IMG/VR virus record: IMGVR_UViG_3300031227_000018
Coordinates: 32,001-96,000 of that record
Strand: one strand, 5' to 3'
Origin: a virus
DNA: 64,000 bases
This document shows, one piece after another, positions 1-60,592 of the stretch (positions are counted from its first letter, which is position 1; every line of letters starts with the position of its first letter). The notes under the pieces are model-generated. The model searched no databases. It was not told the origin of the DNA and worked only from the letters and a program-made list of their open reading frames with translations. A program made the position numbers and the translations under genes.

Positions 1-502
1 TGAAATGTATCAACCAGAAGATTTGTTGGATGTTGGAATGGGTTATGGTAATATAGGAAGTATGGCTCAAATTATTATGCCAAGACTTGAACTTAATGGT
101 ATTGAAATTTGGTTGCCGTACCTTAGTCATGAAAATTCTCAGGCAAAAAGATATAAAAGAATATTCTTGGCAGATATCAAAGATATGATTGGTAAACTTT
201 GGCCTGTTGATATTGTAGTTGCGTGGGATGTGATAGAACACCTCGAAAGGGAAGAGGGGATTAATGTTATATATTATTTAAAATCAATCGCAGAAAAAAG
301 TTTGTTAATAAGTCTTCCAATTATCGATTATCCACAAGGCGCAGTTTATGGAAATAATGCTGAGATTCATAAGACTCAATGGAAAGTTGAAGAGATGGAA
401 GAATTAGGTGCGGAAACAGTGTTTAAGGGTAAAGTGATTGGGGTTTTTGAATTTAAAAGAAGTACAACAGAAAGAGAGGGTAACGATCATGATAGAAGAT
501 AA
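1..502 (+). CDS. Class I SAM-dependent methyltransferase, probably 5'-truncated by the window edge
   Basis: LLDVGMGYG motif I and DIVVAWDVIEHL motif; frame is open to the window start. Confidence 0.8.
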   Translation, partial: EMYQPEDLLDVGMGYGNIGSMAQIIMPRLELNGIEIWLPYLSHENSQAKRYKRIFLADIKDMIGKLWPVDIVVAWDVIEHLEREEGINVIYYLKSIAEKSLLISLPIIDYPQGAVYGNNAEIHKTQWKVEEMEELGAETVFKGKVIGVFEFKRSTTEREGNDHDRR

Positions 503-1286
503 GAAAATGAAAAAGAAAGCAAACAATAAGAAGGTGAAAGATACGAATGATAAGGCGGAAGTCGTAAGTCAATTTGGACCGGATTATTATAATGAAGATT
601 ATTACGTAACTCCGGATGGTAAAAAGTTTGAAACTCCTGATGGTGAAACTTTAGGATGGAGTTATCAGAATCCTGATGGTGAGTTTTTGGGTGCTGATGA
701 TATTGTAAAGGCGTGGAAATTGGTGTTTGATCCAAAGAAAATGTTGGACGTAGGGGCTGGGCGGGGAACATTTGTGGCATACGCTCATAATTATGACATA
801 GAAGCGGTGGGTTTTGATTTTTCATCGTGGGCTGTAGGCGACAAGGGAAGGTACCCGAACTGTAAGGCTGACTGGTTGGAACAACACGATGCCACGAAAC
901 CTTGGCCATATAAAGACAATCAATTTGATATGGTAACATGCTTGGATTTGTTGGAACATATTTATGAAGAAGATATTCAATTTGTTATTGATGAAATGTG
1001 TCGAGTTTCCAAGAAGTATATTTTCTTGCAGATTGCCAGTTTGCCCCATGATGAAGGTGTTTGTTTTAAGAAGGGTCAGAAGATCCCTGTTCAGTGGCAA
1101 GGTTGTGCTGTTGCTGGTCATGTGATTATTCAGCCTAAGAAATGGTGGATTAAAAAAATGTATCGGAATGGTTGGAAAATGAATAAAAATATATTGGATT
1201 GGTTTTTGAGTGTAATGGATAGTGATGTCATTTCTAATTGGTTACAAAACACTATTGTAGTTATGGAGAAAGAAAATGACAAATAA
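489..1286 (+). CDS. Class I SAM-dependent methyltransferase (Methyltransf_11/23-like)
   Basis: MLDVGAGRG, GFDFS, FDMVTCLDLLEHI; ATG 489 preceded by GAGGG. Confidence 0.85.
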   Translation: MIEDKKMKKKANNKKVKDTNDKAEVVSQFGPDYYNEDYYVTPDGKKFETPDGETLGWSYQNPDGEFLGADDIVKAWKLVFDPKKMLDVGAGRGTFVAYAHNYDIEAVGFDFSSWAVGDKGRYPNCKADWLEQHDATKPWPYKDNQFDMVTCLDLLEHIYEEDIQFVIDEMCRVSKKYIFLQIASLPHDEGVCFKKGQKIPVQWQGCAVAGHVIIQPKKWWIKKMYRNGWKMNKNILDWFLSVMDSDVISNWLQNTIVVMEKENDK

Positions 1287-2265
1287 TTTATTGCCCTATA
1301 AGAGTTCCACACCAATTCATTTTTATAAAAGGGAAGATCATTCTTCAATTGATATTGTTGGCGGTAAGATTTTTGAACAAATGAAAGAACATGGCTATAG
1401 TGTAGAATTGAGATCGGCTAACAATGTTAATAAGCCAGAAATAAATCCAGTGGATGTTGGGATTGTTTATGGGCTCGTTCGAGATTTAAAGAAGTTGTCT
1501 CGATATAAAATAAAAGTGGCGGGGTTAGTTTGTGAAGAAGAATTGACTCCTCATAATATTGAGTTAATTGAAGAAGCTGATTTAGATCAAATATGGGTGC
1601 CGAGTGAGTTTGTGGCGAACTTTTTTGTTCAAGCTGGATTTACAGAAAAGGTTACTGTTGTACCGCATGGAATAGACGATTCCCCTATTATTGAATGTAA
1701 AAATAATGGGGAAAGATTCGTAGGTTTAATGATATACAATTCATACAATAGATTGAATGATCACGTAAAGAGAAAGAATCCGTTTAAGGCGGTCGAAGCT
1801 GTTAACTCTTTAAATGGATCGTTAGACCTTTTGTTGAGATTAAAAACAAAGCATCAAGGGTATTACAATAAATATGATTTAAAAAGGGTCGAATTTATTG
1901 ATCAATATTTTGAAAATGTGGATGAATTATATAGAGAGTGCAATTTTGTACTTTATCCGTCAGATTCGGAAGGTTTTGGGCTAATTGGCTTGGAGTGTTT
2001 GATGAGAGGAATTCCATTGATTTCCACTAAAACTGGTAACGATTATCTGGATAAAGATATCGAGTATGTCCACATTGAATTACCAGTGACCGTAGAAAAG
2101 ATTAAAGCAGCTATTTTGAAAATGGTGAGTAATTATCAATACTATAGAAAGCAATCCATTCAACAAAGGGATTTACTTTATTCTAGGTTTTCTTGGCCTG
2201 AGATTGGTAAAAAAGTTGATATCACTATGAGTAAAATTATACGTAAAATTTATGGGGTAAAGTAA
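1276..2265 (+). CDS. GT-B (family 4-like) glycosyltransferase
   Basis: WVPSEF, VVPHGID, RKNP, YPSDSEGFGLIGLECLMRGIPLI (EX7E motif). Confidence 0.88.
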   Translation: MTNNLLPYKSSTPIHFYKREDHSSIDIVGGKIFEQMKEHGYSVELRSANNVNKPEINPVDVGIVYGLVRDLKKLSRYKIKVAGLVCEEELTPHNIELIEEADLDQIWVPSEFVANFFVQAGFTEKVTVVPHGIDDSPIIECKNNGERFVGLMIYNSYNRLNDHVKRKNPFKAVEAVNSLNGSLDLLLRLKTKHQGYYNKYDLKRVEFIDQYFENVDELYRECNFVLYPSDSEGFGLIGLECLMRGIPLISTKTGNDYLDKDIEYVHIELPVTVEKIKAAILKMVSNYQYYRKQSIQQRDLLYSRFSWPEIGKKVDITMSKIIRKIYGVK

Positions 2266-4909: not shown

Positions 4910-4970
4910 CTTAAAATATAGAAGAGATGGTGGTGGTTTCCTTGTGTGCAGTATGCTTCTTAGTCGTAAG

Positions 4971-5002
4971 AAAGGGTGGGATTAAAGTCCTACCCTTTTT
5001 TA
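4971..5002 (+). terminator. Rho-independent terminator after the capsid gene
   Basis: AAAGGGTGGGA-TTAAAG-TCCTACCCTTT followed by T-run. Confidence 0.85.
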
Positions 5003-5075
5003 TTGGTGAATAAGTAAAAAATAAAGTAAAAAAGAAGTAAAATGAGTTGAGAATAAAAATTAAAAGGATAAAAAT

Positions 5076-5360
5076 ATGGGTGAAAATAAAAAAATTTATG
5101 AGACTGATGTTCTTGAACTTTGTCCATTTTTACAGATGAACGGTTTAAGGTATTTGAGGGTTAGGAAAGATAAGAACCATAGTAAAATCGATAATTGTGT
5201 TTTTGTCTTTGAAGATGAAAAACAACAAGGTTCTGATTTATCTATGGCTTTTTTAAAAAGTAGAGAAAAAGAATATAAGGTGCATTGGGGATTTTTTAGA
5301 AATGAATTGGCAAAAGCTCAAGGTAAGAGCTACGCTAATTATGAAATATTGGAAAAGTGA
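5076..5360 (+). CDS. Hypothetical protein (DUF5659-like)
   Basis: YETDVLELCPFLQMNG...CVFVFED pattern; RBS AAGGA. Confidence 0.5.
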   Translation: MGENKKIYETDVLELCPFLQMNGLRYLRVRKDKNHSKIDNCVFVFEDEKQQGSDLSMAFLKSREKEYKVHWGFFRNELAKAQGKSYANYEILEK

Positions 5361-5368
5361 GGAAATAA

Positions 5369-5755
5369 ATGGCGACTGCTTTGACTTTAAGAATATTGGG
5401 TGCTCAGGATCAAGGGATTCTCGATGCTTTTGAGTTTTATGGGGGAGAAAAACGCACCATGACTCTTCAATTGGTTAGAATCGAAGATGATCAAAAATGG
5501 GTAATTCCTGCTGATGTTTCTGATGTTGAAGTGATAGTTTCGGGAACTCCAGATGATATATCTTTAAAAAAATCTGGGGGTTTCGTTGTAATAGATAGCG
5601 TTGATAAAAGTGTAATGACTGTCAATTTGTCAACGACAGCTACTGCAGCAATGATAACGGGGAATATTCAAGCGAAGGTTTCTTCCCCCACCATTGACAC
5701 AATTTATGCTAGACTTGATTTATCATTAAAAAGGTTACGAAAAATATCGGAGTGA
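5369..5755 (+). CDS. Virion structural protein (BppU-N-like beta sandwich)
   Basis: Beta-rich, located in the head-neck module. Confidence 0.45.
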   Translation: MATALTLRILGAQDQGILDAFEFYGGEKRTMTLQLVRIEDDQKWVIPADVSDVEVIVSGTPDDISLKKSGGFVVIDSVDKSVMTVNLSTTATAAMITGNIQAKVSSPTIDTIYARLDLSLKRLRKISE

Positions 5756-5758
5756 TGA

Positions 5759-6574
5759 ATGACTCAAAGTTCAGTTATATTTCCTGAGAATGCTGTATCT
5801 CAACCTGGTTATGATAGGTATGATACGGTATTAACAGTCAATGATTTGAGAAAAAGGTACTTGCATGGAGTTGATTTGAGAGATAGTACGGGCAAAAATT
5901 TGAGCAAACAAGCTGTTGAATTTTATCTCAAGTCCGCCATTTCTCAAATTGAACATGATTATGAAATAACAATCACTCCCACCAAGTACATGTATGAACC
6001 ACATGATTATAAGATGGTGGATTATTGGAATTGGTCTTTAATTAGATTAAAACATAAACCAGTTATCAGTATCGAAGAGTTGCAATTGAGAGTTACTAAT
6101 CCTGATGATAGTAGCGAATCAGATGCTGTAATACCAAACAGTTGGATTAGGCTAACCAATTTGACAGGCCAATTCCAATTAGCCCCTATCACGGGTTCTA
6201 TTGGAACTTTTAATATTGGTAACACCACATTCTTACCTCGCATACTCATTTTTAACGACACTTTTCCGGCGTTTTTTCGTGTAACTTATACTGCGGGTTT
6301 TGAAATAAATAGAATCCCAGCAATCATTAATAACGCTATTGGATTGACTGCTGCTTTACGTATTCTTTCTATCGCGGGCGATCTTGTTCTTGGTGCAGGT
6401 GTAGCGAGTTCTTCAATAGGGTTGGACGGTCTCAGTAAAAGTATTTCAACCACAGCATCGGCTATGTACGGTGCTTATTCTGCTCGTATGGAAGATTATA
6501 GAAAAGAACTTAAAAAAATAGAAGGCATTCTTAAGAAGTATTATGGAAAAACTTTAAAGGCAGCTGTTGTTTAA
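5759..6574 (+). CDS. Head-tail adaptor/connector protein
   Basis: YLHGVDL, VTYTAGF, GAGVASSSIGLDGLSKSISTTASAMYGAYSARM as in Twort-like neck proteins. Confidence 0.8.
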   Translation: MTQSSVIFPENAVSQPGYDRYDTVLTVNDLRKRYLHGVDLRDSTGKNLSKQAVEFYLKSAISQIEHDYEITITPTKYMYEPHDYKMVDYWNWSLIRLKHKPVISIEELQLRVTNPDDSSESDAVIPNSWIRLTNLTGQFQLAPITGSIGTFNIGNTTFLPRILIFNDTFPAFFRVTYTAGFEINRIPAIINNAIGLTAALRILSIAGDLVLGAGVASSSIGLDGLSKSISTTASAMYGAYSARMEDYRKELKKIEGILKKYYGKTLKAAVV

Positions 6575-11045: not shown

Positions 11046-13529
11046 ATGTCGATTACAATTTCTTATAATGGTGCGGCTATTAACAAACCTGGAGCGTATT
11101 CTAAAATTGACGTTGAAGTGAATGCTGGATTGCCGTTAGCTCCTGCAGGTATCGTGGGTATTGTGGGAGAGGCATACGGCGGAGCTCCTGGAAGTTCGGA
11201 TGGTGTTCAAGAATATGACAGCGTACAATTGTATGAAATTATTGCTAAGTATGTTAGCGGTCCTATTGTGGATTCTTGTAGGGCTCTTTTAAATCCAAGT
11301 AAAGACCCCGATATAGTCAACGGTGCGAATAAGGTCAAGATATACAAGACCAATTCATCTGCGCAGTCCAGTTCTTATATTCAACAGATAGATGATGCTG
11401 TCACACCTGAATCCATTATAACATTATTGTCTGCGAATTATGGTGACGATGAAAATAATATCAATTTTTATGTCACCCAAGGAGTTACAGAAGATGACTC
11501 CTGTTCTTTCACTAGTGATACATTAACATTCCCATTAGTTTTATCTGGTGGTGGAATATTGAATTATTATTATCAAGGGTCTATTTATGGCTTTGTAATG
11601 CCAGCAGGTGGACCATATGCCGCAGTTGCTGATGTCATTGCCCTTTTGAATGATGACGCAAATTGGGCACCTAGCCGTCCTATCGTAGCTTCTGCTGTTG
11701 GAACAACTAAAATAAAGGTTGAGATTAACACGGCACTTCCAGCTTTTGATGGTTACGAGACAATGGATGAATATGGTTGGGCATTTTTCGGTGGATTAGT
11801 GAGTGATGCTGAATTGAAATTCAGAACTGATATCCCTTTTACTGGTAATGGAACTGCTGTTGGAACATTTACAACCAGTGACATCAGTACATTGTCTGTA
11901 GGTATGTGGACGCAGGTAATGGATAATGATTCCGCTTTTCTTTTTGTGAAGGTTACAGGAATTAGCGGTTCTGCTGCGCCCTATACGATTACGGTTGATG
12001 ATGGAAACACAAACCTTTTAGCTTATACGGTGGCCCAAAATGCACGTGTTTGGGGTTCTTGTGGTATAATTGACGAAACCACCATGGAATTGACACATGG
12101 AACTGGGGGATGGACGCGAGGTTTTAGGGGTTCTCGATTGGTGATTGCGAAGAAGAATATCACTGTTGAAACTTTACCTGAAAACAGCAATGACACTACG
12201 TTTAGGATTCAATATACAGGTTCTGGCACGAATTGTACAATGTCAATTCAAACCGTTGGCGGTATCAAGAAACTAACAACAACTTGCACAGGTGCTGCGG
12301 CTGATGATTTAGATATTACTTTATCAACATATACCACCATTCAGCAATTGGTAGATTATATTGATAATTATAGCGGAGGAGCAAAATACCATTGCTATAG
12401 CGATTATTACAATGCAGGTTCATTGAGTCCTGCTTATCTCGATTTTTATAACGCCATTCAAATTCGAGCGATTCCACTGGATGTAAAGGTCGCTATCAAT
12501 GAAACTGTTGTTATTCTAAATTCATATTCTCAATTTTTGAGGGGAACTCAAGTTGATAATGTTTACGGTCAACTTGAAACTATTTCAAGTACTGCGAAAA
12601 GATTCTTAACGGGAGCTACCAATGGAGGAACTTCTAACAGTGATGTTCAGGCTGGATTTGATGCATTGTTAACGACTGAATGTGACATAGTTGTTCCGTT
12701 ATTTTGTAGAAATGCTTCGGCTGATATTGTAGAATCTTTGACAGAAGCGACTTCAAATTATACAATTTCTTCAATTGTAACAATGGCAGATTCTCATTGT
12801 CGTACAGCTTCTAACACAATCAATAGAAGTGAAAGAACGGATTTTGTTTCCTATAAAGGAACTTATGCTGCCACTATACAGATGGCAAAACTTTTGAACA
12901 GTGAATACAGCTCATTAGTTCTTCAGGACACTCAAGTCATAGATTCAGATGATACGTTGGCTTGGAAAAATCCGTTCGTGTTTGCTTCTCTTTGTGCTGG
13001 AGCAGAAGCGGGTTCTGAGGTTGGGTTACCACTCACCAAAAAAGCACTTAATTGTAACGGTGTACGTCATTCCGAATTTAATCCAAGAACGGATTACAGT
13101 GCGGCAATTGAAGCTGGCCTTTTCTTCGCTGATATGCCGGAAAGAGGTGGAGTGGTCGTTGTTTGTGGCAATACAACTTATCAAAAAGATGCGAGTTTTG
13201 TTTGGAATAGAAGGTCGGTAATTCGAGCATCTCAGTACACAGCTAAAACATTGCGTGAACAACTTGAGACAGCTTTTGTGGGTAAAACTAAGGCTGGAGG
13301 AACGACTCTTGCTCAAGGTATTAAGGGTTATGCCCAAATGATTCTTGGCTCTTTGTTGAGGCAAAACATATTAGTTGGAGATAGTAGAAATGGTGGTCTT
13401 GGATATCGCGGTTTAACTGTCAATGTATCTGGTGGAACTGTTACTTTGGATGTAATTATTACACCAATTCAAGGAATTGATTTTGTCTTAAATAATATCA
13501 CTTTGGCTAATATCAGTGATGCTGCTTAA
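11046..13529 (+). CDS. Contractile tail sheath protein with inserted domains
   Basis: KPGAYSKI..GIVGEAYGG N-terminus; LREQLETAFVG and ITPIQGIDFV C-terminus. Confidence 0.92.
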   Translation: MSITISYNGAAINKPGAYSKIDVEVNAGLPLAPAGIVGIVGEAYGGAPGSSDGVQEYDSVQLYEIIAKYVSGPIVDSCRALLNPSKDPDIVNGANKVKIYKTNSSAQSSSYIQQIDDAVTPESIITLLSANYGDDENNINFYVTQGVTEDDSCSFTSDTLTFPLVLSGGGILNYYYQGSIYGFVMPAGGPYAAVADVIALLNDDANWAPSRPIVASAVGTTKIKVEINTALPAFDGYETMDEYGWAFFGGLVSDAELKFRTDIPFTGNGTAVGTFTTSDISTLSVGMWTQVMDNDSAFLFVKVTGISGSAAPYTITVDDGNTNLLAYTVAQNARVWGSCGIIDETTMELTHGTGGWTRGFRGSRLVIAKKNITVETLPENSNDTTFRIQYTGSGTNCTMSIQTVGGIKKLTTTCTGAAADDLDITLSTYTTIQQLVDYIDNYSGGAKYHCYSDYYNAGSLSPAYLDFYNAIQIRAIPLDVKVAINETVVILNSYSQFLRGTQVDNVYGQLETISSTAKRFLTGATNGGTSNSDVQAGFDALLTTECDIVVPLFCRNASADIVESLTEATSNYTISSIVTMADSHCRTASNTINRSERTDFVSYKGTYAATIQMAKLLNSEYSSLVLQDTQVIDSDDTLAWKNPFVFASLCAGAEAGSEVGLPLTKKALNCNGVRHSEFNPRTDYSAAIEAGLFFADMPERGGVVVVCGNTTYQKDASFVWNRRSVIRASQYTAKTLREQLETAFVGKTKAGGTTLAQGIKGYAQMILGSLLRQNILVGDSRNGGLGYRGLTVNVSGGTVTLDVIITPIQGIDFVLNNITLANISDAA

Positions 13530-36212: not shown

Positions 36213-36277
36213 GTGGCAGGTGGATTGGGGGTCGTTGATTTTCCATCCCCCAAGTGCGACCCTCATCCGCTTGTCAT
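36213..36277 (+). promoter_or_regulatory. Long GC-rich hairpin in the groEL leader
   Basis: GTGGCAGGTGGATTGGGGGTCG / CGACCCTCATCCGCTTGTCAT, about 21 bp with G-U pairs. Confidence 0.65.
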
Positions 36278-36307
36278 AAAATCGATAATAACATCATAGG
36301 AGGTCAA

Positions 36308-38029
36308 ATGGAGTCTGTAAAAGCAAAAAGGATAGTTTCTAAGCAGAGGTTTCGTGATTTGGTGATTCAAGGTGTGGGCATTTTATCAGAACCTGTAGTT
36401 GCCACATTAGGCCCAGAGGGTTTGCCAATCTTGATTCAAAGAGATGGAGCTCCGCCGTTTTTTACAAAAGACGGTGTAACAGTGGCTCGTCATACAAAAG
36501 TCAAAAATCCGTTGCTTGATACGATAATCACTTCATTAAAAGAAAGTTCTGAAAAAACTAATGAAAAAGTTGGTGATGGAACAACAACCGCAGTGGCTTT
36601 GTCTGCCGCTATTATTCGTGAGGGGATGAAACAGATAAAATCTGGAATTGTCACTCCACAAGAATTGGTTAATGGTATTCGTAAATTAGGAGATCTGTTT
36701 CCAGCTGTTTTAGAAAAATGGGTAAGAAAGATAAAGACAAAAGAGGAGCAGCACAATGTTGCTTATATATCAGCTAATAATGATAAAGTCATTGCAGATA
36801 AAGTTGTGGAAGCTGTTGAGATGGCAGGGGAAGACGGTTATGTTTCGCTTGAAGATGGTACTTCAAAAGAAATTAAGGTTCAGTTTGTTGAGGGATATAC
36901 TTTATCGTCTGGGTGGTCTAATATCGGAGCTTATGGGACTACTTTTGTTAATAATTCTCAAAAAAATTCAGTGGACATATTGAAGCCAGCGATTCTTTTA
37001 TATGATGGAGTTGTTTCTGATGTCAATGATTTGGCTAATTTCTACATTGCTTTAACAAACAACGGGACTAGACCGATTCCATTATTAATAATAGCTCATA
37101 ATTTTGAGGGCGAAGCACTTAATATGCTTATTCTCAATAAGCGTGCTGGTCAAATTGTTGGGCTTGCAAAAGTTCCTTATTTGTCAACCATCAGTAGTCG
37201 TCGTTGGCTTTTAGATGATTTGGCAGCTTTGACGGGTGGTAAGGTTGTTGAGCATGATTCTAATGGTATTATGAAGGGAGTTTTTAGTGGTGAAAAAGTT
37301 AAGACCCTTAATGAAGGGGTGTTGGGGTGTTGTGATAAAGTGGTTATTGGTAAAAAAGATACGATAATTTATGGTGGTCATAGTGATGATGAAGAAAAGA
37401 TCAAGTACAGTGACACTTTGAGAGGACAGTTGCCGGATGCTGAAAGTGAATCGGAGTTTGATGTTGATTTGATCAAAACTCGTTTATCTAAAATGTTTGG
37501 TGGTATAGTGGAAATTCAGGTGGGCGGTTCTACTGAATTGGAGGTTAGAGAGAAAAAGTACAGGGTTGAAGATGCACTCAATGCGACGCGTGCTGCAACT
37601 GAAATGGGTGTAGTTCCTGGTGGTGGGATTGTTTTTTTCAATCTAGCAGAAATTTTCTTAAAAGATTATTTAAGAGATAATGTTCATATGGCAATAGCTA
37701 TTAAAGTCATGAAAGAAGCGTTAAAAGATCCCCTTAGAATTATATTGTCAAACGCTGATATTAAACCTGATGAGATAATCGGTGATCTTTTAAAGACAGT
37801 GCGGTCGCACCCTCTCAGGGGTTATGATGCGAAAAAGAAGGTTTTAGTGGAGAATATGATGGATGCAGGGATTATGGATCCTCTTAAGGTGTCAATTTTG
37901 GCTCTTAGAAGTGCGATTTCAATATCTTGTGAATTATTGTGTGGTGGTGGAATGTTGGCTTTTGATGAAGGCACTGACAATCCTTCACAATCTGACTTTT
38001 ATGTTAATGAATCCAATCAGGAGGTGTAG
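36308..38029 (+). CDS. groEL: Phage GroEL-like chaperonin
   Basis: TLGPEG, TKDGVTVA, GDGTTTA, RVEDALNATRAA, GVVPGGG, GIMDPLKV. Confidence 0.95.
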   Translation: MESVKAKRIVSKQRFRDLVIQGVGILSEPVVATLGPEGLPILIQRDGAPPFFTKDGVTVARHTKVKNPLLDTIITSLKESSEKTNEKVGDGTTTAVALSAAIIREGMKQIKSGIVTPQELVNGIRKLGDLFPAVLEKWVRKIKTKEEQHNVAYISANNDKVIADKVVEAVEMAGEDGYVSLEDGTSKEIKVQFVEGYTLSSGWSNIGAYGTTFVNNSQKNSVDILKPAILLYDGVVSDVNDLANFYIALTNNGTRPIPLLIIAHNFEGEALNMLILNKRAGQIVGLAKVPYLSTISSRRWLLDDLAALTGGKVVEHDSNGIMKGVFSGEKVKTLNEGVLGCCDKVVIGKKDTIIYGGHSDDEEKIKYSDTLRGQLPDAESESEFDVDLIKTRLSKMFGGIVEIQVGGSTELEVREKKYRVEDALNATRAATEMGVVPGGGIVFFNLAEIFLKDYLRDNVHMAIAIKVMKEALKDPLRIILSNADIKPDEIIGDLLKTVRSHPLRGYDAKKKVLVENMMDAGIMDPLKVSILALRSAISISCELLCGGGMLAFDEGTDNPSQSDFYVNESNQEV

Positions 38030-39443: not shown

Positions 39444-40367
39444 ATGCGACTAAAAGATTGTGTTTTTGTTGAAAAATATCGTCCCAAGTCTATTGCTGAT
39501 ATAGCGGGGAAAAGTAAGACGTTTCTTTCTTCTTATTTGGAGAAGAATGAATTACTTCCCCACTTCTTATTTTATAGTACTTTTCCAGGAACTGGTAAAA
39601 CATCGTTGGCGAAGGCTTTTGTCAATGATTTGGGTTGTGATATTTTATTACTCAACAGTTCTGATGAACGTAAGATAGACGTTGTACGAGAGAAAGTGAA
39701 AATGTTTGCTAGTTCTGTATCTAGTAAGCAAGGTAAGAAGAAGTGTATATTTCTTGATGAGGCAGACGGTTTGACACGGCAGAGTCAGGATGCATTGCGA
39801 AATGTGATGGAAACTTATAGTAAAAATTGTTTTTTTATACTTTCTTGCAATTATATCAATAAGATTATTGATCCGCTAAAAAGTCGTTGCATTCTAGTTG
39901 ATTTTTCAAAATGTTTTAATAAAAAAGAAGTTTGTTCGTATATATCAAAAATAGTTCAAGAAGAGAGTTTGAATGAATTGGGTGTTAACGATGAAGTCGT
40001 GGAAAAAGTTGTGGAAATGTACAGGCCGAATGTTCGCAATATGGTTATGTTTTTGCAAAGAGTTAAGGTTTCAGGTGCAGAAGTTGTTGGAGAGATTTTA
40101 AACAAGGATGTTTATGATTCTTTTTGGGATCTTTTTAAAGAAAAGAAGTTTGCATCTATAGGAAAATTGTTGGCTGAAAATGATTTAGATGTTGAGTTGA
40201 TCAATAAGTGGTTGTTTGATAAGGCGATAGAAAATTCAAAAGAATTGGGGGTTAAAAGACTTATCAAAACTATCAGAATAATTGCTGAGAATGAAAGAGA
40301 TTTTGTTTCAGGCGCGGATAAGAATTTAATTTTCCGTTGCGGTATTTTTAGTATGATGATTGGATAA
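39444..40367 (+). CDS. Clamp loader AAA+ subunit (RFC small/T4 gp44-like)
   Basis: VEKYRP, PGTGKT, LNSSDER, LDEAD, SQDALR, LKSRC. Confidence 0.93.
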   Translation: MRLKDCVFVEKYRPKSIADIAGKSKTFLSSYLEKNELLPHFLFYSTFPGTGKTSLAKAFVNDLGCDILLLNSSDERKIDVVREKVKMFASSVSSKQGKKKCIFLDEADGLTRQSQDALRNVMETYSKNCFFILSCNYINKIIDPLKSRCILVDFSKCFNKKEVCSYISKIVQEESLNELGVNDEVVEKVVEMYRPNVRNMVMFLQRVKVSGAEVVGEILNKDVYDSFWDLFKEKKFASIGKLLAENDLDVELINKWLFDKAIENSKELGVKRLIKTIRIIAENERDFVSGADKNLIFRCGIFSMMIG

Positions 40368-40380
40368 CTGGGGGGGGCAG

Positions 40381-40797
40381 ATGTTCAATATAATCAAAAA
40401 CCTTTATACTCGAAAAGATTATGATTGGATAAGGGAGTTGGATGACAATGTTCCATCTTTAGTCATTTTCAATTACCTTTTATCTGACCCTTCAGTTGGA
40501 AGAAAGATTAAGAGTTTGGCTCCCAGTTTGTTCAGTATTCCTCCAAAGAATTTTATCGCTGTTTTGCATACGTATGTTCCAAAACAAAATAGAGCTCCTT
40601 TTCTTGGAGGTGTTCGTAAAAAGGAAGAAGACAAAGTTGTTGATGAAATAATGGATAAATTGAGGAGATATTTTAAATATTCTGAAAAAGAATTTTCATA
40701 TATTCAAAAGTATATTTTTGATAATTTTGTTAAAGATAACATAAAAGAATGGCAAATTAAACTGGGATTAGGAGGTAAGAGGCATGTCGTTAAATAA
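40381..40797 (+). CDS. Clamp loader small subunit (T4 gp62-like)
   Basis: Size and position; YVPKQNRAPF...IMDKLRRYFKYS. Confidence 0.6.
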   Translation: MFNIIKNLYTRKDYDWIRELDDNVPSLVIFNYLLSDPSVGRKIKSLAPSLFSIPPKNFIAVLHTYVPKQNRAPFLGGVRKKEEDKVVDEIMDKLRRYFKYSEKEFSYIQKYIFDNFVKDNIKEWQIKLGLGGKRHVVK

Positions 40798-41122
40798 TTT
40801 TGTGAACCTTGATTCAGGGTACAAAGAAAAAATGAGTCGGCTTGAAAGGTTGAAAAAAAGGTTTTCTGAATCTTTACCTGAAAATATAGCAAAATATAAG
40901 GCCCAAGAAATTGTTTTAACATCTGATAAGTTGGAGAGTGTTAAGCTAAATGCCAATAATCATGCAGGATTAAGACCTAGTTTAGCTTTTTATTTTGAAA
41001 ATGCAGAAGAAATTAAAATGGTAGCAAAATATTTCAATACAAGTTTTAAGCAAATGGCAGTGAAAGATTCCGGTTTGTTAATTGAGATTATTAAAATGTT
41101 GGAGGAAACGAAAAATGGATAA
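40784..41122 (+). CDS. Hypothetical protein in the modification operon
   Basis: Translationally coupled to neighbours; LAFYFENAEE. Confidence 0.6.
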   Translation: MSLNNFVNLDSGYKEKMSRLERLKKRFSESLPENIAKYKAQEIVLTSDKLESVKLNANNHAGLRPSLAFYFENAEEIKMVAKYFNTSFKQMAVKDSGLLIEIIKMLEETKNG

Positions 41123-42524
41123 GAATAATTGTGAGATAGACAGCATGGAAAATTCTTGTGATTTGAGAGAAGAAGAGAATTGGGATTTTGATACAAAAGA
41201 AAGGTATGGAAGTCCACGAGTAAGTTCTGAATATATGGATTGTTCTTTGCCATTGACTTTTGATCAATATTCGTATTGTTCTATGAAGTGCAAATATTGT
41301 TTTGCATATTATCAAAAAGCGATGAATCCGTCTATGCGTTCTGGGATAAAATTAAAGGGGGTTAATGTAGACAAATTGATTAAAATGTTTAAAGGGGAAA
41401 TACCTGAAGACCCATATTATCATAATTTTATTAAAAAGAAGTTCCCATTCCATTGGGGTGGCCTTGCTGATCCGTTTGATATGGTTGAAAAAAAATATAA
41501 ACTTGGTTTTAAATTATTGGAAACTTTGGTGGAATTGAATTATCCAGTTATATTTTCTACAAAAGGAACATTACCCTCACAAGAACCCTATTATTCTTTG
41601 TTTAAGAATGCTGCAAAAAATAAGAATTTTGCATTTCAGTTCAGTATTATTGCTAATTCCGATGAGTTATCGAAAAAGATAGATGTTGCAGTTCCGACAA
41701 CTTCTGAAAGATTACAGTGCATGAAAACAATGTCAGATTTAGGTTATTGGACTGTATTAAGATTAAGACCTTTTATAGTTGGAATAAGTGATATTGATGT
41801 AGAAGAGCTTATAACCCGTTCTTCTCAAAATGGTGCGAATGCTATTTCCACTGAATTTTATTGTTATGATGCTAGATGTTCAAATAATGTAGAAATAGCA
41901 AAAAGATTTAAGGAAATATCGCAAATATGTGGTTTTGATATCATCGATTTTTACAAAAAGTTAAGCCCTTCTGAGCGAGGTGGTTATAGGAGATTGAATA
42001 GAAATCTTAAAGAAGAGTATGTGAAAAGAATGTATACAACCTGTAAGAAGGTTGGTATGCAATTCAATATTTCGGATCCAGATTTTAAAGAACTTAATGA
42101 CAGCGGTTCTTGTTGTGGTTTGCCTGAATTAAGGGAACAGTATGACAGTGATTTGGTTAATTGGTCTCGTGGGCAATTAACTTATCATCTCAAGGAATTA
42201 CGTAAAAGATATTGGGCAAGTGGAGGTAAAGAAAGGTATTTAAAGATTCGTGATGTGATGGGAGATTCTTATGATGGTTGGTTAAAAGAACCGCGTTTTT
42301 ATAGTGATAGTCTTAAAAATTGGGCAACTTCTTGGGCAAAAGTTAATATGGGTTATAGAGACGAATTCATACAAACATGGAATAATACCAGGAGTTCTGG
42401 TAATCCGTACAATTATTTTCATGGTAAGATTAAACCTTCTTATATTGATGATGATAATAATGTTGTTTTTGAGTATGTTCCCCATGATTATGAGAAGAGG
42501 TGGAAAGAAGAAGGGATATTGTAA
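41115..42524 (+). CDS. Radical SAM enzyme (spore-photoproduct-lyase-like clade)
   Basis: DQYSYCSMKCKYC (CxxxCxxC), GGLADPF, STKG, LRLRPFI. Confidence 0.88.
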   Translation: MDKNNCEIDSMENSCDLREEENWDFDTKERYGSPRVSSEYMDCSLPLTFDQYSYCSMKCKYCFAYYQKAMNPSMRSGIKLKGVNVDKLIKMFKGEIPEDPYYHNFIKKKFPFHWGGLADPFDMVEKKYKLGFKLLETLVELNYPVIFSTKGTLPSQEPYYSLFKNAAKNKNFAFQFSIIANSDELSKKIDVAVPTTSERLQCMKTMSDLGYWTVLRLRPFIVGISDIDVEELITRSSQNGANAISTEFYCYDARCSNNVEIAKRFKEISQICGFDIIDFYKKLSPSERGGYRRLNRNLKEEYVKRMYTTCKKVGMQFNISDPDFKELNDSGSCCGLPELREQYDSDLVNWSRGQLTYHLKELRKRYWASGGKERYLKIRDVMGDSYDGWLKEPRFYSDSLKNWATSWAKVNMGYRDEFIQTWNNTRSSGNPYNYFHGKIKPSYIDDDNNVVFEYVPHDYEKRWKEEGIL

Positions 42525-43262
42525 ATGGGAATAAAATATTGTAGGTCTTGTTGTCAAATGACTAGTCACGGTTTAAATGACAGGTGTTTAAAGTGCGGAA
42601 AAAATAATTTAATTCAAAAAAATATATTGGGGGAAGAATGTTGGGTTAGAAAAGATACTTGGGATGAAAATATTTTTAAAGAAATGGGATTGTATTTGAA
42701 AAAGATTTCTTTAACTCCTGAGGATGTCTGGCTGGATGTAGGCGGTAACATAGGGAGTTTTTGTAAAAAAATTGCCAAAGAAGTTGCCACTGTTATTGCT
42801 TATGAGCCAGATGAAAATAATTTTGAACTTTTAAAGAAAAATAATGAAGAAAGTGATAATATTATTTTTGTAAATAAAGCTGTTATTGGAAATGCTGATA
42901 TTGTGAGGGATTTTTATTTGAATCAAAAAACCAATAAGAGTACACATTCTTTTTTTGTTAAACGTGGAAGGGAACGCGTTGAGGTTGGATGTGAGAATGT
43001 TAATGAGATAATTCAAAAGTATAAAGTTGATAAAATAAAAATTGATTGTGAGGGGAGTGAGTACGAAATCATAAAATCTATTGTTGATTTTTCTTCAATT
43101 AAAGAAATATTTGTGGAATTTCATTTAAATATTTTATGTAAAAAGAATGATTTAACTAAGTACAGGGAAGTTATTAAAATCCTTAAAAAGAATTTTGCGT
43201 ATTTGGAGTATCCGGAGGATGTTAAAAAAAATTGGCATGTTTATATTTATGTGAAAAAATAA
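42525..43262 (+). CDS. FkbM-family methyltransferase
   Basis: LDVGGNIG, AYEPDENN, KIDCEGSEYEI, VEFH; N-terminal Zn knuckle. Confidence 0.88.
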   Translation: MGIKYCRSCCQMTSHGLNDRCLKCGKNNLIQKNILGEECWVRKDTWDENIFKEMGLYLKKISLTPEDVWLDVGGNIGSFCKKIAKEVATVIAYEPDENNFELLKKNNEESDNIIFVNKAVIGNADIVRDFYLNQKTNKSTHSFFVKRGRERVEVGCENVNEIIQKYKVDKIKIDCEGSEYEIIKSIVDFSSIKEIFVEFHLNILCKKNDLTKYREVIKILKKNFAYLEYPEDVKKNWHVYIYVKK

Positions 43263-44432
43263 ATGAGATATATACATTCACAAAATAAAGATAAAGAATT
43301 TATCGATTGGAGAAACCCTTCTAGAAGGAAAGAAGGGTTTTTAAAGTGGTTAAAATGGAGAATGCGGTATGGAGATTTGGACCATTACGTTTGTAATAAT
43401 TCCTACAGGGATGCAATTGGCAAAATGTCTCCAACTGGTAAATCAATGACTAAGGAGCAGGCGCATTGGTTTTCTTTAATTTTTGGTATGACTTATCAAT
43501 CAGAAATGGCGTGGGTTATTTATTGGAATTTTCCTGATTTTTGGTCTATCAACATTGAAGAGTTAGAAAAATGGAATTTGGATAATATTGATCGACAAAG
43601 GTATGCTCGTGATACTAAATATAATAAAGGGAGGATCGTTAGTCAAGTCAAGTCCCTCCAAAATGAAATTGGTCCTTCCGGTTCTATTGAAAAGTTTTTT
43701 GGTGAATCATTGAGTGATGATGAAAATGAGTCTTTTGAAAAAGTTTTTAATTCTTGTATGAGGTTTCATAAGTATGGAGGTATGACTTCTTGGTTGACTT
43801 GTCAGTTGTTATTCGAAACTGCCAATGTACCGATTAAACCTGACACCGTCAGAGCCACCACACCTTGGAATTGGTCAGTAAGGTCGGGTTTGATGTATGC
43901 TTATAATAGGGACGATAAGATTGAAGCTACTTGTAAGGATGTTGAGTTTTGTGATAAAGATATTGAACAAATAAAAGAGTATGAAAAAGAGTTGTATGAG
44001 TTAGCGAAAGATTGTATTGATGAAAATGATAAAAAGATTTTTTCAAATTATTTATTAGAATCTCATTTGTGTCAATATAAAAAGTTAATGTTAGGAGGTG
44101 ATTATGCTGGTCATTCTTCTGGAGATCACTTTTCAAGGGCACTTTGGTTATCTGAACGGTGGCCTGAAGTAAATTTTGATGTATTTTTTAAAGAAGCAAT
44201 AAAAAAACATTGTCCGATTGTAAGGGGAAAAAGGGAGAGTAAACAGCTTCGGTTTGTTTGTTCTAAGACAGGTCAGATGATAAATATGCATGAGGACTTT
44301 CAGGAATTGCCTAATATGTATTTGGAATTGGGAATAAATCCTGATTGGTTTTATACTAAAGAATATGACGAAGAAGTGGGAAGTAGAGTTGATAGTTATG
44401 CAAATAAAATTTATAATTCTAATTGGTGGTGA
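43263..44432 (+). CDS. aGPT-PPlase2-like (amino acid:DNA transferase) thymine hypermodification enzyme
   Basis: YARDTKYNKG, HhH-like YGGMTSW, LESHLCQYKK...YAG. Confidence 0.78.
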   Translation: MRYIHSQNKDKEFIDWRNPSRRKEGFLKWLKWRMRYGDLDHYVCNNSYRDAIGKMSPTGKSMTKEQAHWFSLIFGMTYQSEMAWVIYWNFPDFWSINIEELEKWNLDNIDRQRYARDTKYNKGRIVSQVKSLQNEIGPSGSIEKFFGESLSDDENESFEKVFNSCMRFHKYGGMTSWLTCQLLFETANVPIKPDTVRATTPWNWSVRSGLMYAYNRDDKIEATCKDVEFCDKDIEQIKEYEKELYELAKDCIDENDKKIFSNYLLESHLCQYKKLMLGGDYAGHSSGDHFSRALWLSERWPEVNFDVFFKEAIKKHCPIVRGKRESKQLRFVCSKTGQMINMHEDFQELPNMYLELGINPDWFYTKEYDEEVGSRVDSYANKIYNSNWW

Positions 44433-44446
44433 AAGGAAGGGGTAAA

Positions 44447-44824
44447 ATGATTAACACTTATGATCTTGATGGGGTTGTTTATTTAGGAGATGATTATGAT
44501 GGTATTTATCCAGGTAGAGAAGACATCATTATAACGGGGAGAAGTATTGAGGAAGCGAAGTCTACGCATGAAATGTTGAGGTTGAGGTGCATTTATAGTC
44601 ATGTGTTTTTTAACCCAATTCCATTCAGTGCAAAAACTAGAGAATCTTCTGGTTATCATAAAGTTAATGTGATTAAAATGTTGATTGAAAGCGGTTATGA
44701 ACATGGCCTTCATTTTGATGATGATGAAATTCAGATCAAAATAATCAAAGAGCTCCTTCCCAATGTTCGTGTTGTGCATGTAGTTTCTGATATTGTTGAG
44801 AAGGAAAATGTTAGACATGATTGA
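44447..44824 (+). CDS. HAD-family phosphatase
   Basis: YDLDGV, IITGR, K, HFDDD. Confidence 0.82.
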   Translation: MINTYDLDGVVYLGDDYDGIYPGREDIIITGRSIEEAKSTHEMLRLRCIYSHVFFNPIPFSAKTRESSGYHKVNVIKMLIESGYEHGLHFDDDEIQIKIIKELLPNVRVVHVVSDIVEKENVRHD

Positions 44825-45317
44825 GGGCAAAATGTTAGAAATAGAAAAGAGAATAGTTATTGAACCTGAAAGTGTTGTTTGGAATCAGAAGGTAAAGGAG
44901 TGGTGCGGTCTTCCGTATTATGATAAAAAAAATGGATGTCCAAATTTCAATAAACGTAAGGGATGTCCGATGGATAATAAGAATATAGATGAAATTTTAG
45001 ATGTCAATAAAAAAACTTATATTGTGGGTGTTGTTTTTAATTTAAAAGAATATCGCGATGAAATGAAGAAAAAACATTCAAATTGGACATATCGACAATT
45101 AAACAATGTGATATATTGGCAAGGATCAATTTTTGGAAAAATGAAAAGGGAAGTCAATAAGTTTTCATTGATGAATCCTGGTTTAAAAATTGTTTATAAG
45201 CCAGAAGCATATGGAGTTAATTTAACAAAGATGTTATTGAATTCGGGTGTTCCGATAAACTGGAAGTACCCGTTGAGAAAGATTTATATTGTGGCGTTAT
45301 TAGGAGGAAAAATATGA
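44817..45317 (+). CDS. DUF2284-like Cys-rich metal-binding protein
   Basis: WCGLPY...GCPNF...GCP, PEAYGVN. Confidence 0.6.
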   Translation: MIEGKMLEIEKRIVIEPESVVWNQKVKEWCGLPYYDKKNGCPNFNKRKGCPMDNKNIDEILDVNKKTYIVGVVFNLKEYRDEMKKKHSNWTYRQLNNVIYWQGSIFGKMKREVNKFSLMNPGLKIVYKPEAYGVNLTKMLLNSGVPINWKYPLRKIYIVALLGGKI

Positions 45318-45832
45318 AAGAATTTATTGCAGTTATTGGTCAAAGTGCATGTGGTAAAACAACATTTGTTCAAAATGAATTTATTGGGGCAAATGAGATG
45401 GTGTTAAATAAAGATCCACTTTTACATACTGTTGTTAATGATTGTTGTTTATTGGGGGATTATGTTACGTCTGTGAGGACAAAAGGTACTGACAGGTTTT
45501 CTTATTCTATTTTACCAGATTTGATTGAGTTTATAAAAAATAAAAAAGATGAATACAATCGTTTTGTCGCAGAAGGTGATAGAATAAATTGTGAAAGATT
45601 CTTCCAGTCTTTAAAAGATTTGAAATTGAATGTTACGGTTTATGTTTTTTTATGTGATGTTAATTTGAGCGTTCAGCGTAGAGTTGATTCTGGTTCAAAA
45701 CCTTCAGAGCAATTTGTAAGGGCAACTCAAACTAAAACTTTAAGAATGAAAAAAATGGTAGAATCTTTAGGGTTTAAAGTTATTGTTGAAGATTCTAGAA
45801 CAGAAAACAATATCAAACATGGATGGTGGTGA
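45314..45832 (+). CDS. P-loop nucleotide kinase of the base-modification type (PLNK3-like)
   Basis: IGQSACGKTT, LGDY, GTDRFSYSILP, EGDR. Confidence 0.8.
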   Translation: MKEFIAVIGQSACGKTTFVQNEFIGANEMVLNKDPLLHTVVNDCCLLGDYVTSVRTKGTDRFSYSILPDLIEFIKNKKDEYNRFVAEGDRINCERFFQSLKDLKLNVTVYVFLCDVNLSVQRRVDSGSKPSEQFVRATQTKTLRMKKMVESLGFKVIVEDSRTENNIKHGWW

Positions 45833-45835
45833 CTT

Positions 45836-46216
45836 ATGCGTGAAGAACTTGAAGCAAAAATGTTTTGTCAATTATTATATAAAGAGGGGTATGTTGAAGG
45901 TACGTCTGGTAATTTAAGTTTTAGAGATAGAAGTAGAGTTAAAATAACTCGTACAGGTTGTACATTGGATGATCCATTTTTTGTTGATACAGAAAGTTTT
46001 GAGGCTTCATCTGATGTTAATTTACATAAAGAAATTTATCGATTGACGGATAGTGATTGGATTTTTCATGTTCATAAAGACCTTAAATTAAAATTTCTTT
46101 TGACAGATAAAGATTTGGATCTTCATTGGTTTAATGTAAGAGATCATGGGGTTTGGGTTGGATGTGGAGTTGATATAAAAATTTATAGAATTCTTGAAGA
46201 TGAGGGAATTTTATAA
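45836..46216 (+). CDS. Minimal class II aldolase/adducin-family protein
   Basis: GTSGNLSFR, ITRTG, SSDVNLHKEIY, HVH, HG. Confidence 0.8.
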   Translation: MREELEAKMFCQLLYKEGYVEGTSGNLSFRDRSRVKITRTGCTLDDPFFVDTESFEASSDVNLHKEIYRLTDSDWIFHVHKDLKLKFLLTDKDLDLHWFNVRDHGVWVGCGVDIKIYRILEDEGIL

Positions 46217-59477: not shown

Positions 59478-59975
59478 ATGCTTAAAATAAAAAATAAAAA
59501 ACAAAAAGTGGAAGAGGTTAAAATAAGCAAAGAAGAGTATGATCGTTTGAAGGATGTAGATGAAGAATATGGAGCGATGTTTAAACAGTGGAGAGAAATG
59601 GGGAAAAGGGTTGGGTTGGCGAATAAAAGTTTGATTATAATGGCTGGTACGTTGAAAACTGTGGATGGTTTATTGAAAGATAATTTTAATGTTTGGTTAA
59701 GTAAGACGATCAAGGCAGGGAAAGCGGTTATAACTGCGAAAGTCAGTACGTTTAGGAATGAAAAGGATGTAGCAGATACAATAGAAGGGGCTTATTTGCA
59801 AGCTGTTTTGGTTAAAGTAGCTCAAAATTCAAAAAATTATTACAGTGGTGGAAGTGATCTTTGTGAAATGTTTATGGGAAATTTGGATGATAGTGTACCG
59901 AAAGAAATAAGGGAAGTGATGAAAGAAGGGGTTCTTAAAGGTGCTGTTAAATTGGATAAGGAGGGGGAGGAATGA
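59478..59975 (+). CDS. Hypothetical protein
   Basis: ORF within operon. Confidence 0.6.
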   Translation: MLKIKNKKQKVEEVKISKEEYDRLKDVDEEYGAMFKQWREMGKRVGLANKSLIIMAGTLKTVDGLLKDNFNVWLSKTIKAGKAVITAKVSTFRNEKDVADTIEGAYLQAVLVKVAQNSKNYYSGGSDLCEMFMGNLDDSVPKEIREVMKEGVLKGAVKLDKEGEE

Positions 59976-60592
59976 AATTAGATAAGGTACAAGCTGTTAA
60001 AAAATACCATATTGTTTATGCTACAATCAATTTAAAAAATTCTAAATTGTATATTGGAAGGCATTCTACCGATAATTTAGAAGATGGATATTTGGGTAGT
60101 GGGAAGATTCTCAATAAGGCTATTAAAAAATATGGTAAAGAAGTTTTTGCTATTGATATTTTGGAGTTTTATGATACATTTGAAAAATGTTGTAAAGGTG
60201 AAAAGTTTTGGATTCGTATGTTTAAAATGCCAAATAAAATATCAAATGATGTTTATAATATTTCGGATGGGGGGGAAGGGAATTTGGGTTATACTCATAC
60301 AAATGAAACTAAATTAAAGATATCGGCTCCAGGTGAGTCTAATCCTATGTTTGGTAAAAAGCATAAAGAGAGTACAAAAGAGTTGATAAGAGTTAAAAGA
60401 CTTAAAAATTTGGAATCTAAAGAATTCAGAACTAGGATGATTAAAGTTCATGCTGATGTGTCAGGGAATAAAAATCCTTTTTATGGCAAGCATCATTCTG
60501 AAGAAACAAAGAAGAAGATTGGTTTATCCAATATGGGTAAAAAGCGTTCCAAAGGAATTCTACAAAAAATTGAGATAAATTGCATTGGATAG
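59972..60592 (+). CDS. Free-standing GIY-YIG homing endonuclease (Seg-like) with NUMOD3 repeats
   Basis: IVY...YIGRH, YLGSG, YNISDGGEG, NPMFGKKH, NPFYGKHHSEETK. Confidence 0.9.
   Translation: MKLDKVQAVKKYHIVYATINLKNSKLYIGRHSTDNLEDGYLGSGKILNKAIKKYGKEVFAIDILEFYDTFEKCCKGEKFWIRMFKMPNKISNDVYNISDGGEGNLGYTHTNETKLKISAPGESNPMFGKKHKESTKELIRVKRLKNLESKEFRTRMIKVHADVSGNKNPFYGKHHSEETKKKIGLSNMGKKRSKGILQKIEINCIG

Follow-up and report, generated by a model that had tools for sequence, protein, structure and literature searches.

A spore photoproduct lyase-like radical SAM protein as a candidate entry enzyme of a phage thymine-hypermodification cluster

A gene cluster with users of 5-hydroxymethyluracil

Which enzyme might activate thymine in a phage genome that encodes users of 5-hydroxymethyluracil (5-hmU) and none of its known sources? 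The question is raised by the virus record IMGVR_UViG_3300031227_000018 of IMG/VR, of which a stretch of 64,000 nucleotides (record bases 32001-96000), here called the window, was analyzed together with the rest of the record. The record has 109,218 bp and shows 127-bp direct terminal repeats (DTR) at its ends, and for this reason the genome is taken as complete. The window contains a densely packed run of + strand genes (40784-46216) where a radical S-adenosylmethionine (SAM) protein similar to spore photoproduct lyase (SPL), rSAM hereafter, is followed by an FkbM-family methyltransferase, an ADDT transferase, a HAD-like phosphatase, a DUF2284 protein, a P-loop kinase and a short aldolase-like protein. 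The best explanation for this run is a self-contained post-replicative pathway of thymine hypermodification, with rSAM at its first step. From the comparisons described below, we consider it rather likely that rSAM converts thymine in DNA, with no need for oxygen, to 5-hmU or to an equivalent activated form, and it is probably an oxygen-independent substitute for TET/JBP. The genes of the run are:

40784-41122, + strand: small conserved protein of 112 amino acids, immediately upstream of rSAM (hhalign match to a 130-amino acid protein preceding rSAM in other lineages)
41082-42524, + strand, likely start ATG 41115: SPL-like radical SAM protein, rSAM (PF04055, E 3.8e-7; motif CSMKCKYC)
42525-43262, + strand: FkbM-family SAM methyltransferase (PF05050, E 2.9e-13; N-terminal CxxC...CxxC ribbon)
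43263-44432, + strand: ADDT (aGPT-Pplase2) transferase (PF18724, E 1.7e-15, 57.9 bits against a cut-off of 26.2; phrog_3271, E 4e-37)
44423-44824, + strand: minimal HAD-like phosphatase (phrog_415; invariant D14xD16, G39, K80 and D100D101)
44793-45317, + strand: DUF2284 cysteine-rich metal-binding protein (PF10050, E 4.8e-6; Atlas score 0.96)
45314-45832, + strand: P-loop kinase, homologue of the 5-hydroxymethyldeoxyuridine (5-hmdU) DNA kinase (Walker A GQSACGKTT; phrog_800)
45836-46216, + strand: class II aldolase-like protein of 126 amino acids (PF00596, E 4.3e-8, residues 11-81)

An earlier note on this DNA had named the seven enzymes from rSAM to the aldolase, and all of them were recovered at these coordinates, on the + strand, by open reading frame (ORF), Pfam, PHROG and profile comparisons. 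The ATG at 41115 is also the start of rSAM in its database copy (P0001). The note had taken 43263-44432 for an aGPT-PPlase and 44793-45317 for a DUF2284-like protein, and the profile matches listed above agree with both assignments. Its kinase was likewise confirmed, as the family matches gp54 of Pseudomonas phage M6, whose activity as a 5-hmdU DNA kinase has been defined by experiment (hhalign 96.4%, E 1.2e-9, 127 columns). The family phrog_800 is labelled 'terminase small subunit', a label which also stands on the records of M6 gp54 and of gp114 of Caulobacter phage Cr30; Cr30 gp114 is a homologue of the kinase, and both proteins are mis-annotated.

The ADDT shows a cysteine, Cys270, which is invariant in eight diverse members of its clade (motif HLCQYKK). 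This motif matches the catalytic-cysteine motif of M6 gp51 and of the PaMx11 gp46 transferase, in which Cys247 is catalytic (PMC11472151). The shared pattern E-x-x-L-C-x-[WY] aligns in M6 gp51 and in the ADDT of a related locus (L015, described below), as a motif-level match. By homology, the ADDT would swap the phosphate of 5-phosphomethyl-deoxyuridine in DNA for a nucleophile. With this ADDT and the 5-hmdU kinase homologue both present, the assignment of the locus to the thymidine-hypermodification clusters, made in the earlier note, stands.

Known sources of 5-hmU in the complete genome

The recognized routes to 5-hmU are a ThyA-like dUMP hydroxymethylase acting before replication (PMC8989533) and a TET/JBP dioxygenase acting after it (PMC13229309). 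Profile searches of the complete genome found no ThyA-like protein (PF00303), ThyX (PF02511), TET_JBP (PF12851), C5-methyltransferase (PF00145) or dCMP deaminase (PF00383). The same PF00303 search detects the M6 hydroxymethylase and the Cr30 thymidylate synthase, and that with PF12851 was positive in five of five sister records. M6 gp58, gp52 and gp65, used as tblastn queries against the genome, gave nothing (E > 2 for gp58). Furthermore, a direct hmmscan that took in every ORF of at least 90 amino acids bar two showed no thymidylate synthase, 2-oxoglutarate (2OG)-type oxygenase, pyridoxal phosphate (PLP) enzyme or ParB. The earlier statement that PLP enzymes, thymidylate-synthase-like genes and TET/JBP genes are missing from the 64 kb is true for the whole record, where neither dUMP hydroxymethylase nor dCMP deaminase was found. 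There is no known source of 5-hmU or 5-hydroxymethylcytosine (5-hmC) anywhere in the complete genome, while the consumers, kinase and ADDT, are present, and this combination is one reason to propose rSAM as the entry enzyme.

Two other proteins of the genome, a cupin (PF07883/mannose-6-phosphate isomerase type) and a nitroreductase, were considered as alternative oxidants and rejected, since they belong to a sugar/glycan gene set; we know of no member of either family that acts on DNA. 5-Methylcytosine was rejected as the substrate of rSAM because C5-methyltransferase is absent from the genome and from 46 related records.

Position of rSAM in relation to TET/JBP cassettes

The loci with the closest ADDTs (32-69% identity to that of the window) were collected from IMG/VR scans together with phage Cr30, which has the closest cultured ADDT (32% identity). 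Among these 41 loci, 35 show a TET_JBP gene (PF12851, 48-85 bits; 430-450 amino acids) located 2-2.5 kb upstream of ADDT. Of the six exceptions, five reach the contig end with under 1.5 kb of DNA upstream, and the sixth, L084, is the sole cassette with enough upstream DNA and yet no TET. The genes run in the order TET, (FkbM), ADDT, myo-inositol-phosphate-synthase-like gene and HAD, in many cases with the kinase as well; the FkbM homologues sit between TET and ADDT, and the FkbM protein of the window is a probable tailoring methylase of the appended group. The HAD-like protein, which had no Pfam match and whose profile matched no PDB sequence, is 35-69% identical across 38 of the 41 loci, including Cr30, and constantly accompanies this ADDT clade.

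Neither rSAM nor DUF2284 was found in any of the TET-type cassette loci. In the window and in locus L047, rSAM occupies the place of TET upstream of the cassette. Because the cassette is the same, with ADDT and HAD reaching 69% identity with their TET-type counterparts, rSAM is considered to hold the TET slot, and its alternation with TET upstream of one cassette also argues for an entry enzyme. The earlier note had called this enzyme combination unfamiliar, which was overstated: FkbM, ADDT, HAD and kinase are commonly found together, in the 41 loci including Cr30, normally with TET and the myo-inositol-phosphate-synthase-like gene.

Compared with the Cr30-type cassettes (Cr30 gp129-gp114 and 40 IMG/VR loci), the window shares the ADDT clade, the HAD, the FkbM methylase and the kinase, as well as a post-replicative logic with no nucleotide-pool enzymes, and ParB-like neighbours occur in some lineages. 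In contrast, its entry enzyme would be an SPL-like rSAM and not an Fe/2OG dioxygenase, and it has DUF2284, the small upstream protein and a short aldolase as additional genes. It also lacks the myo-inositol-phosphate-synthase-like gene, in whose stead the short aldolase is found. In the sister cassettes this synthase-like gene adjoins HAD, which hints, as a lead only, that the appended group there comes from a sugar- or cyclitol-phosphate-derived donor. Contigs with thymidine hypermodification genes have been associated with TET_JBP (Lee et al. 2021, PMC8989533), and phage thymidine dioxygenases, some of them activated by ParB, have been described (O'Toole et al. 2026, PMC13229309). No report on the product of a Cr30-type cassette was found in the papers searched.

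Two observations were made on individual cassettes. Cr30 gp129 (L004 4942-6270) is a TET_JBP dioxygenase (77 bits) that carries the annotation 'putative SNF2 DNA repair protein'. In L084, a TnpB/IS605 OrfB gene (5116-6303) lies upstream of FkbM-ADDT at about the TET position, with ADDT starting at 7853.

Distribution and gene neighbourhood of the rSAM family

More than 470 metagenomic relatives of rSAM were found, the best 120 of which are at least 43% identical; several carry inteins. A tblastn search with two diverse family members against 50,697 cultured phage records gave no match, and the family therefore has no cultured model. Among 185,579 species genomes, rSAM was carried by four short contigs of metagenome-assembled genomes, and the family is nearly phage-only. 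Alignment A1 allowed 61 rSAM loci to be collected from IMG/VR, where a single-sequence scan of viral contigs gave none, and dereplication at 90% identity left 46 lineages.

Immediately upstream of rSAM, 32 of the 46 lineages show a small protein homologous to the product of 40784-41122 (hhalign 98.1%, E 6.7e-14, with the 130-amino acid protein), which makes the latter a candidate accessory or activator subunit of rSAM. Its model has a pTM of 0.38 and gave no meaningful fold match, and the scores of a predicted complex with rSAM (0.00, 0.72 and 0.00) count neither way. In five other lineages this upstream place is taken by a ParB_N protein (L069:8986-9996, L060-L062 and L064). This mirrors the thymidine dioxygenases that are activated by ParB (PMC13229309), and is a further point in favour of rSAM as entry enzyme. 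The C-terminal part of the ParB-like neighbours shows a weak resemblance to the small upstream protein (hhalign 58%, E 1e-4), which is a lead only.

Downstream of rSAM, TAGT (PF20691, 'TET-associated glycosyltransferase') is found in 22 of the 46 lineages, the kinase in 10, ADDT in six, a radical SAM protein with a SPASM domain in 10, a B12-binding radical SAM protein in three and DUF2284 in nine, and TET is next to rSAM in none. TAGT, ADDT or kinase lies within 10 kb of rSAM in 32 lineages. When the 46 rSAM-bearing records were searched over their whole length, TAGT was present in 29, and neither TET_JBP nor C5-methyltransferase was found in any of them. DUF2284 tracks rSAM and not ADDT, being present in nine of the rSAM lineages and absent from all TET-type cassettes.

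The rSAM-linked TAGTs are 22-35% identical to the T-even glucosyl-hydroxymethylcytosine glucosyltransferase genes, which in cultured phages adjoin dCMP hydroxymethylase. In T-even-type and TAGT phages the hydroxymethyl group comes from dCMP hydroxymethylase or from TET. The rSAM phages have TAGT as the next gene in the lineages counted above and, unlike those phages, show neither of the two enzymes; the window itself has no TAGT. The pairing of rSAM with three unrelated classes of users of hydroxymethylated pyrimidines (TAGT, kinase and ADDT) again suggests an enzyme that acts at the entry. For the family as a whole, the evidence leans slightly towards an O2-independent hydroxylase or activator of a 5-methylpyrimidine in DNA, that is, a functional counterpart of TET/JBP with another fold. 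Phage DNA would then have three routes to 5-hmU, the other two being dUMP hydroxymethylase and TET/JBP, and this one would supply glucosylation or amino-acid-type hypermodification in many uncultured phages, probably of anaerobes.

Structure of rSAM and relation to SPL and M6 gp53

The AlphaFold model of rSAM has a pLDDT of 88 and a pTM of 0.89. Foldseek found SPL as its best solved match (E about 1e-6), and VIA-align also placed SPL at the top, with Z 19.0 and a root-mean-square deviation of 3.2 A over 272 residues (model residues 24-332), while other radical SAM enzymes reached Z 15.6 or less. The sequence identity to SPL is 13-15%, and the rSAM family profile gave no SPL match at E <=1 against PDB; the profiles of the rSAM, ADDT and HAD families matched no relevant PDB sequence. 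SPL is a DNA-binding radical SAM enzyme whose mechanism includes a radical intermediate centred on the methyl carbon of thymine (PMC8989533), and this best solved fold is one more reason to see rSAM as the entry enzyme. As in SplB (PDB 4FHC and relatives), rSAM shows the fold and the CX3CX2C cluster of an enzyme which acts on DNA with its chemistry at the thymine methyl carbon. Unlike SplB, it continues at the C-terminus into an additional domain (residues 333-480, about 150 in all) with an invariant CC pair, and it has a context of DNA-modification genes rather than of spore repair and an almost phage-only spread. Seven cysteines are conserved across 75 family members: the triad C66/C70/C73, and C54, C321, C344 and C345, which could hold a second cluster.

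The M6 pathway to 5-NedU, formed by gp51 (ADDT), gp52 (PLP enzyme), gp53 (radical SAM isomerase), gp54 (kinase) and gp58 (dUMP hydroxymethylase), suggests another role for rSAM. The window resembles M6 in its kinase and ADDT homologues and in having an SPL-like radical SAM protein within the cluster. It differs in the absence of hydroxymethylase, PLP decarboxylase and dCMP deaminase, and its ADDT is only remotely similar to gp51. In this alternative, rSAM would be a tailoring enzyme like gp53, which rearranges the group after ADDT, and 5-hmU would come from an unrecognized phage enzyme or from the host. Such a role is consistent with gp53 itself being SPL-like, with 480 amino acids and 21% identity over the radical SAM core, and with radical SAM enzymes being listed among the tailoring enzymes of thymidine-hypermodification clusters (PMC8989533). 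The similarity is nevertheless that of a core fold: the alignment (hhalign 94.5%) is confined to 212 core columns and the C-terminal 200 residues of rSAM, including the conserved CC motif, do not align, so that rSAM is not a full-length orthologue of gp53. Furthermore, in most lineages rSAM is paired with TAGT and ADDT is missing altogether, the TET-type sister cassettes function without any rSAM, and we know of no host that supplies 5-hmU.

The most discriminating case is L015, a 105-kb DTR record with the gene order small protein, window-type rSAM, second radical SAM protein, PLP enzyme, ADDT and kinase, in which ThyA-like and TET genes are absent. The second radical SAM protein is a true orthologue of M6 gp53, the glycinyl-thymine isomerase (39% identity over 332 residues), and the PLP enzyme matches M6 gp52 (E 2e-24). 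The whole M6 tailoring set is thus present; the sole missing M6 function is the hydroxymethylase, the source of 5-hmU, and the extra gene is the window-type rSAM. Since L015 encodes both proteins, the window-type rSAM is not the gp53 isomerase, and the gp53-like role is left with a small probability. In L015 the gp53-type isomerase (11302-13104) is split by an intein (PF14890) right after the CxxxCxxC cluster motif.

Replication context of rSAM and further alternatives

The modification run continues, without a gap, a series of genes that begins at the clamp loader. From 39444 to 46216 there are eleven + strand genes that abut or overlap, with no terminator-like site in this stretch according to a terminator scan; a combined promoter and terminator scan gave a signal no higher than chance. 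The first genes of the series are:

39444-40367, + strand: clamp-loader large subunit, first gene of the series (PF00004/PF13177; phrog_168, E 6.7e-64)
40360-40797, + strand: protein of 145 amino acids in the clamp-loader small-subunit position (same position in six related loci)

No Pfam family was listed for the 145-amino acid protein in its hmmscan batch. This arrangement is widespread: in 43 of the 61 loci rSAM comes shortly after the clamp loader, near Pol III alpha, DnaB and DnaG. It would be expected if rSAM were an SPL-like enzyme of DNA repair or replication whose adjacency to modification genes merely reflects a shared replication module. A repair function also agrees with the best fold match, a repair enzyme, with the label 'DNA repair photolyase' that JGI gives to relatives, and with the 14 of 46 lineages that show no recognized consumer nearby. 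However, it leaves TAGT, kinase and ADDT with no source of substrate in 10 near-complete genomes plus this one, and it explains neither the one-for-one exchange with TET upstream of the FkbM-ADDT cassette nor the ParB neighbour. In addition, the rSAM family profile has no sequence match to SPL. We regard a repair or replication role as improbable, to the same degree as the gp53-like one.

The least probable of the alternatives is that rSAM activates thymine with no free 5-hmU, through another handle such as a radical-coupled adduct or on nucleotides before replication, with kinase and TAGT using the product. In its favour, radical SAM hydroxylation is chemically demanding, second radical SAM genes often come after rSAM (SPASM type in 10 lineages, B12-binding type in three) and the fold alone cannot separate a DNA from a nucleotide substrate. 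Against it, the homologue of the kinase phosphorylates the hydroxyl of 5-hmU, the TAGT relatives glucosylate a hydroxymethyl-pyrimidine, and these cassettes also operate downstream of TET, an enzyme whose product is 5-hmU.

Proposed pathway

With rSAM as the entry enzyme, the cluster would operate as follows. The SPL-like rSAM would bind the phage DNA, perhaps together with the small upstream protein and with DUF2284, which may be a redox helper. The 5'-deoxyadenosyl radical would take a hydrogen from the C5-methyl of thymine, the resulting allylic radical would be oxidized by one electron, possibly via the second cluster at C54, C321, C344 and C345, and the addition of water would give 5-hmU. 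The P-loop kinase would then phosphorylate 5-hmU, as predicted by homology to M6 gp54. Next, Cys270 of the ADDT would attack C6, with the phosphate being expelled and a nucleophile added, according to its homology to M6 gp51 and PaMx11 gp46. Finally, the appended group may be built or trimmed by the methylase (FkbM), the phosphatase (HAD) and the short aldolase. An activator role may fall to the small upstream protein, and in other lineages to ParB, which has this role for some thymidine dioxygenases (PMC13229309). Across the family, rSAM and the small protein would form a mobile entry module able to feed TAGT, a Cr30-type ADDT cassette or an M6-type cassette of ADDT, PLP enzyme and isomerase.

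Radical SAM enzymes are known to replace O2-dependent enzymes, as in the pairs HemN/HemF and BchE/AcsF. To our knowledge, the only enzymes known to oxidize the methyl carbon of thymine or 5-methylcytosine within DNA are Fe/2-oxoglutarate dioxygenases, and these require O2. A 2026 preprint describes a radical SAM enzyme that stands in for an oxidase in the modification of tRNA uridine (PMC13228596). In a collection of 8.4 million papers and preprints, no report was found of a radical SAM enzyme that hydroxylates thymine or 5-methylcytosine in DNA. The suggestion of the earlier note that rSAM might activate thymine directly and without oxygen has gained independent comparative support from the TET slot, the pairing with consumers and the ParB neighbours, within the bounds of sequence comparison. 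On this basis, the cluster appears to be a variant of post-replicative thymidine hypermodification, and rSAM is a strong candidate for a new DNA-modifying activity.

Several points weigh against this proposal. All of its support is comparative, and for a radical SAM enzyme to achieve the net hydroxylation of a methyl group that is not activated, an electron acceptor and the addition of water are required. The place of rSAM next to the clamp loader would also suit an enzyme of repair or replication, and an unrecognized 5-hmU-forming enzyme is possible among the unannotated ORFs. The 14 lineages with no recognized consumer beside rSAM include some contig ends, and others with unknown genes or a B12-binding radical SAM protein. 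Furthermore, four of the 46 rSAM-bearing records show a weak ThyA-like match near rSAM, although none of the 10 records that are at least 90% complete does. In those four records rSAM may act downstream of a hydroxymethylase, and because of them the family may lack one single role.

If the proposal is right, rSAM would represent new enzymology for DNA and would explain thymine hypermodification by phages of anaerobes. Hundreds of virome genes named 'DNA repair photolyase' would acquire a function, and an oxygen-free tool for the site-directed installation of 5-hmU would become available. The pairing of aerobic and anaerobic enzymes seen in haem and chlorophyll synthesis would then be repeated for an epigenetic-type DNA mark.

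Additional genes of the cluster, of rSAM loci and of the genome

Two genes of the cluster deserve separate description. According to the Atlas, viral clusters of DUF2284 exist, and their structural similarity to nitroreductases is weak (TM 0.49). The short aldolase covers only the N-terminal half of its domain (profile positions 7-92 of 183), with the HVH motif present. No tblastn match to it was found in any of the approximately 100 related loci that were fetched, and the Atlas contains aldolase_II clusters of 127 amino acids which resemble it.

Three further arrangements were observed in rSAM loci. In L044 (11311-12723) and also in L066, a protein of 470 amino acids with a weak thymidylate-synthase-like stretch (PF00303, 20 bits, E 4e-4) lies between rSAM and kinase, and may represent a divergent hydroxymethylase or an enzyme with the ThyA fold that acts on DNA. 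In L028 (11541-14584), L063 and L032/L033, rSAM is followed by a B12-binding radical SAM protein (PF02310 and PF04055) and a 460-amino acid protein instead of TAGT or ADDT, and these two genes are another downstream module. The TAGT frames of L067, L068 and L074 (records G042, G043 and G049) contain four to seven in-frame TGA codons, and TGA probably encodes an amino acid in these phages.

Elsewhere in the genome, a sugar nucleotidyltransferase and an NAD epimerase/dehydratase are encoded at genome positions 552-1487 and 4934-5863 (L001). A large glycan-tailoring set is found at about 18-34 kb of the genome (L002, window 1-2265), and includes APS kinase, sulfotransferase, pyruvyl transferase, glycosyltransferases of GT2, GT4 and GT7C, several methyltransferases, and the nitroreductase and cupin mentioned above. 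A phage-encoded GroEL-like chaperonin (window 36254-38029; PF00118, E 4e-54) is located shortly upstream of the replication and modification genes, and a GIY-YIG/NUMOD3 homing-endonuclease-like gene (window 59972-60592) lies within a block of recombination genes.

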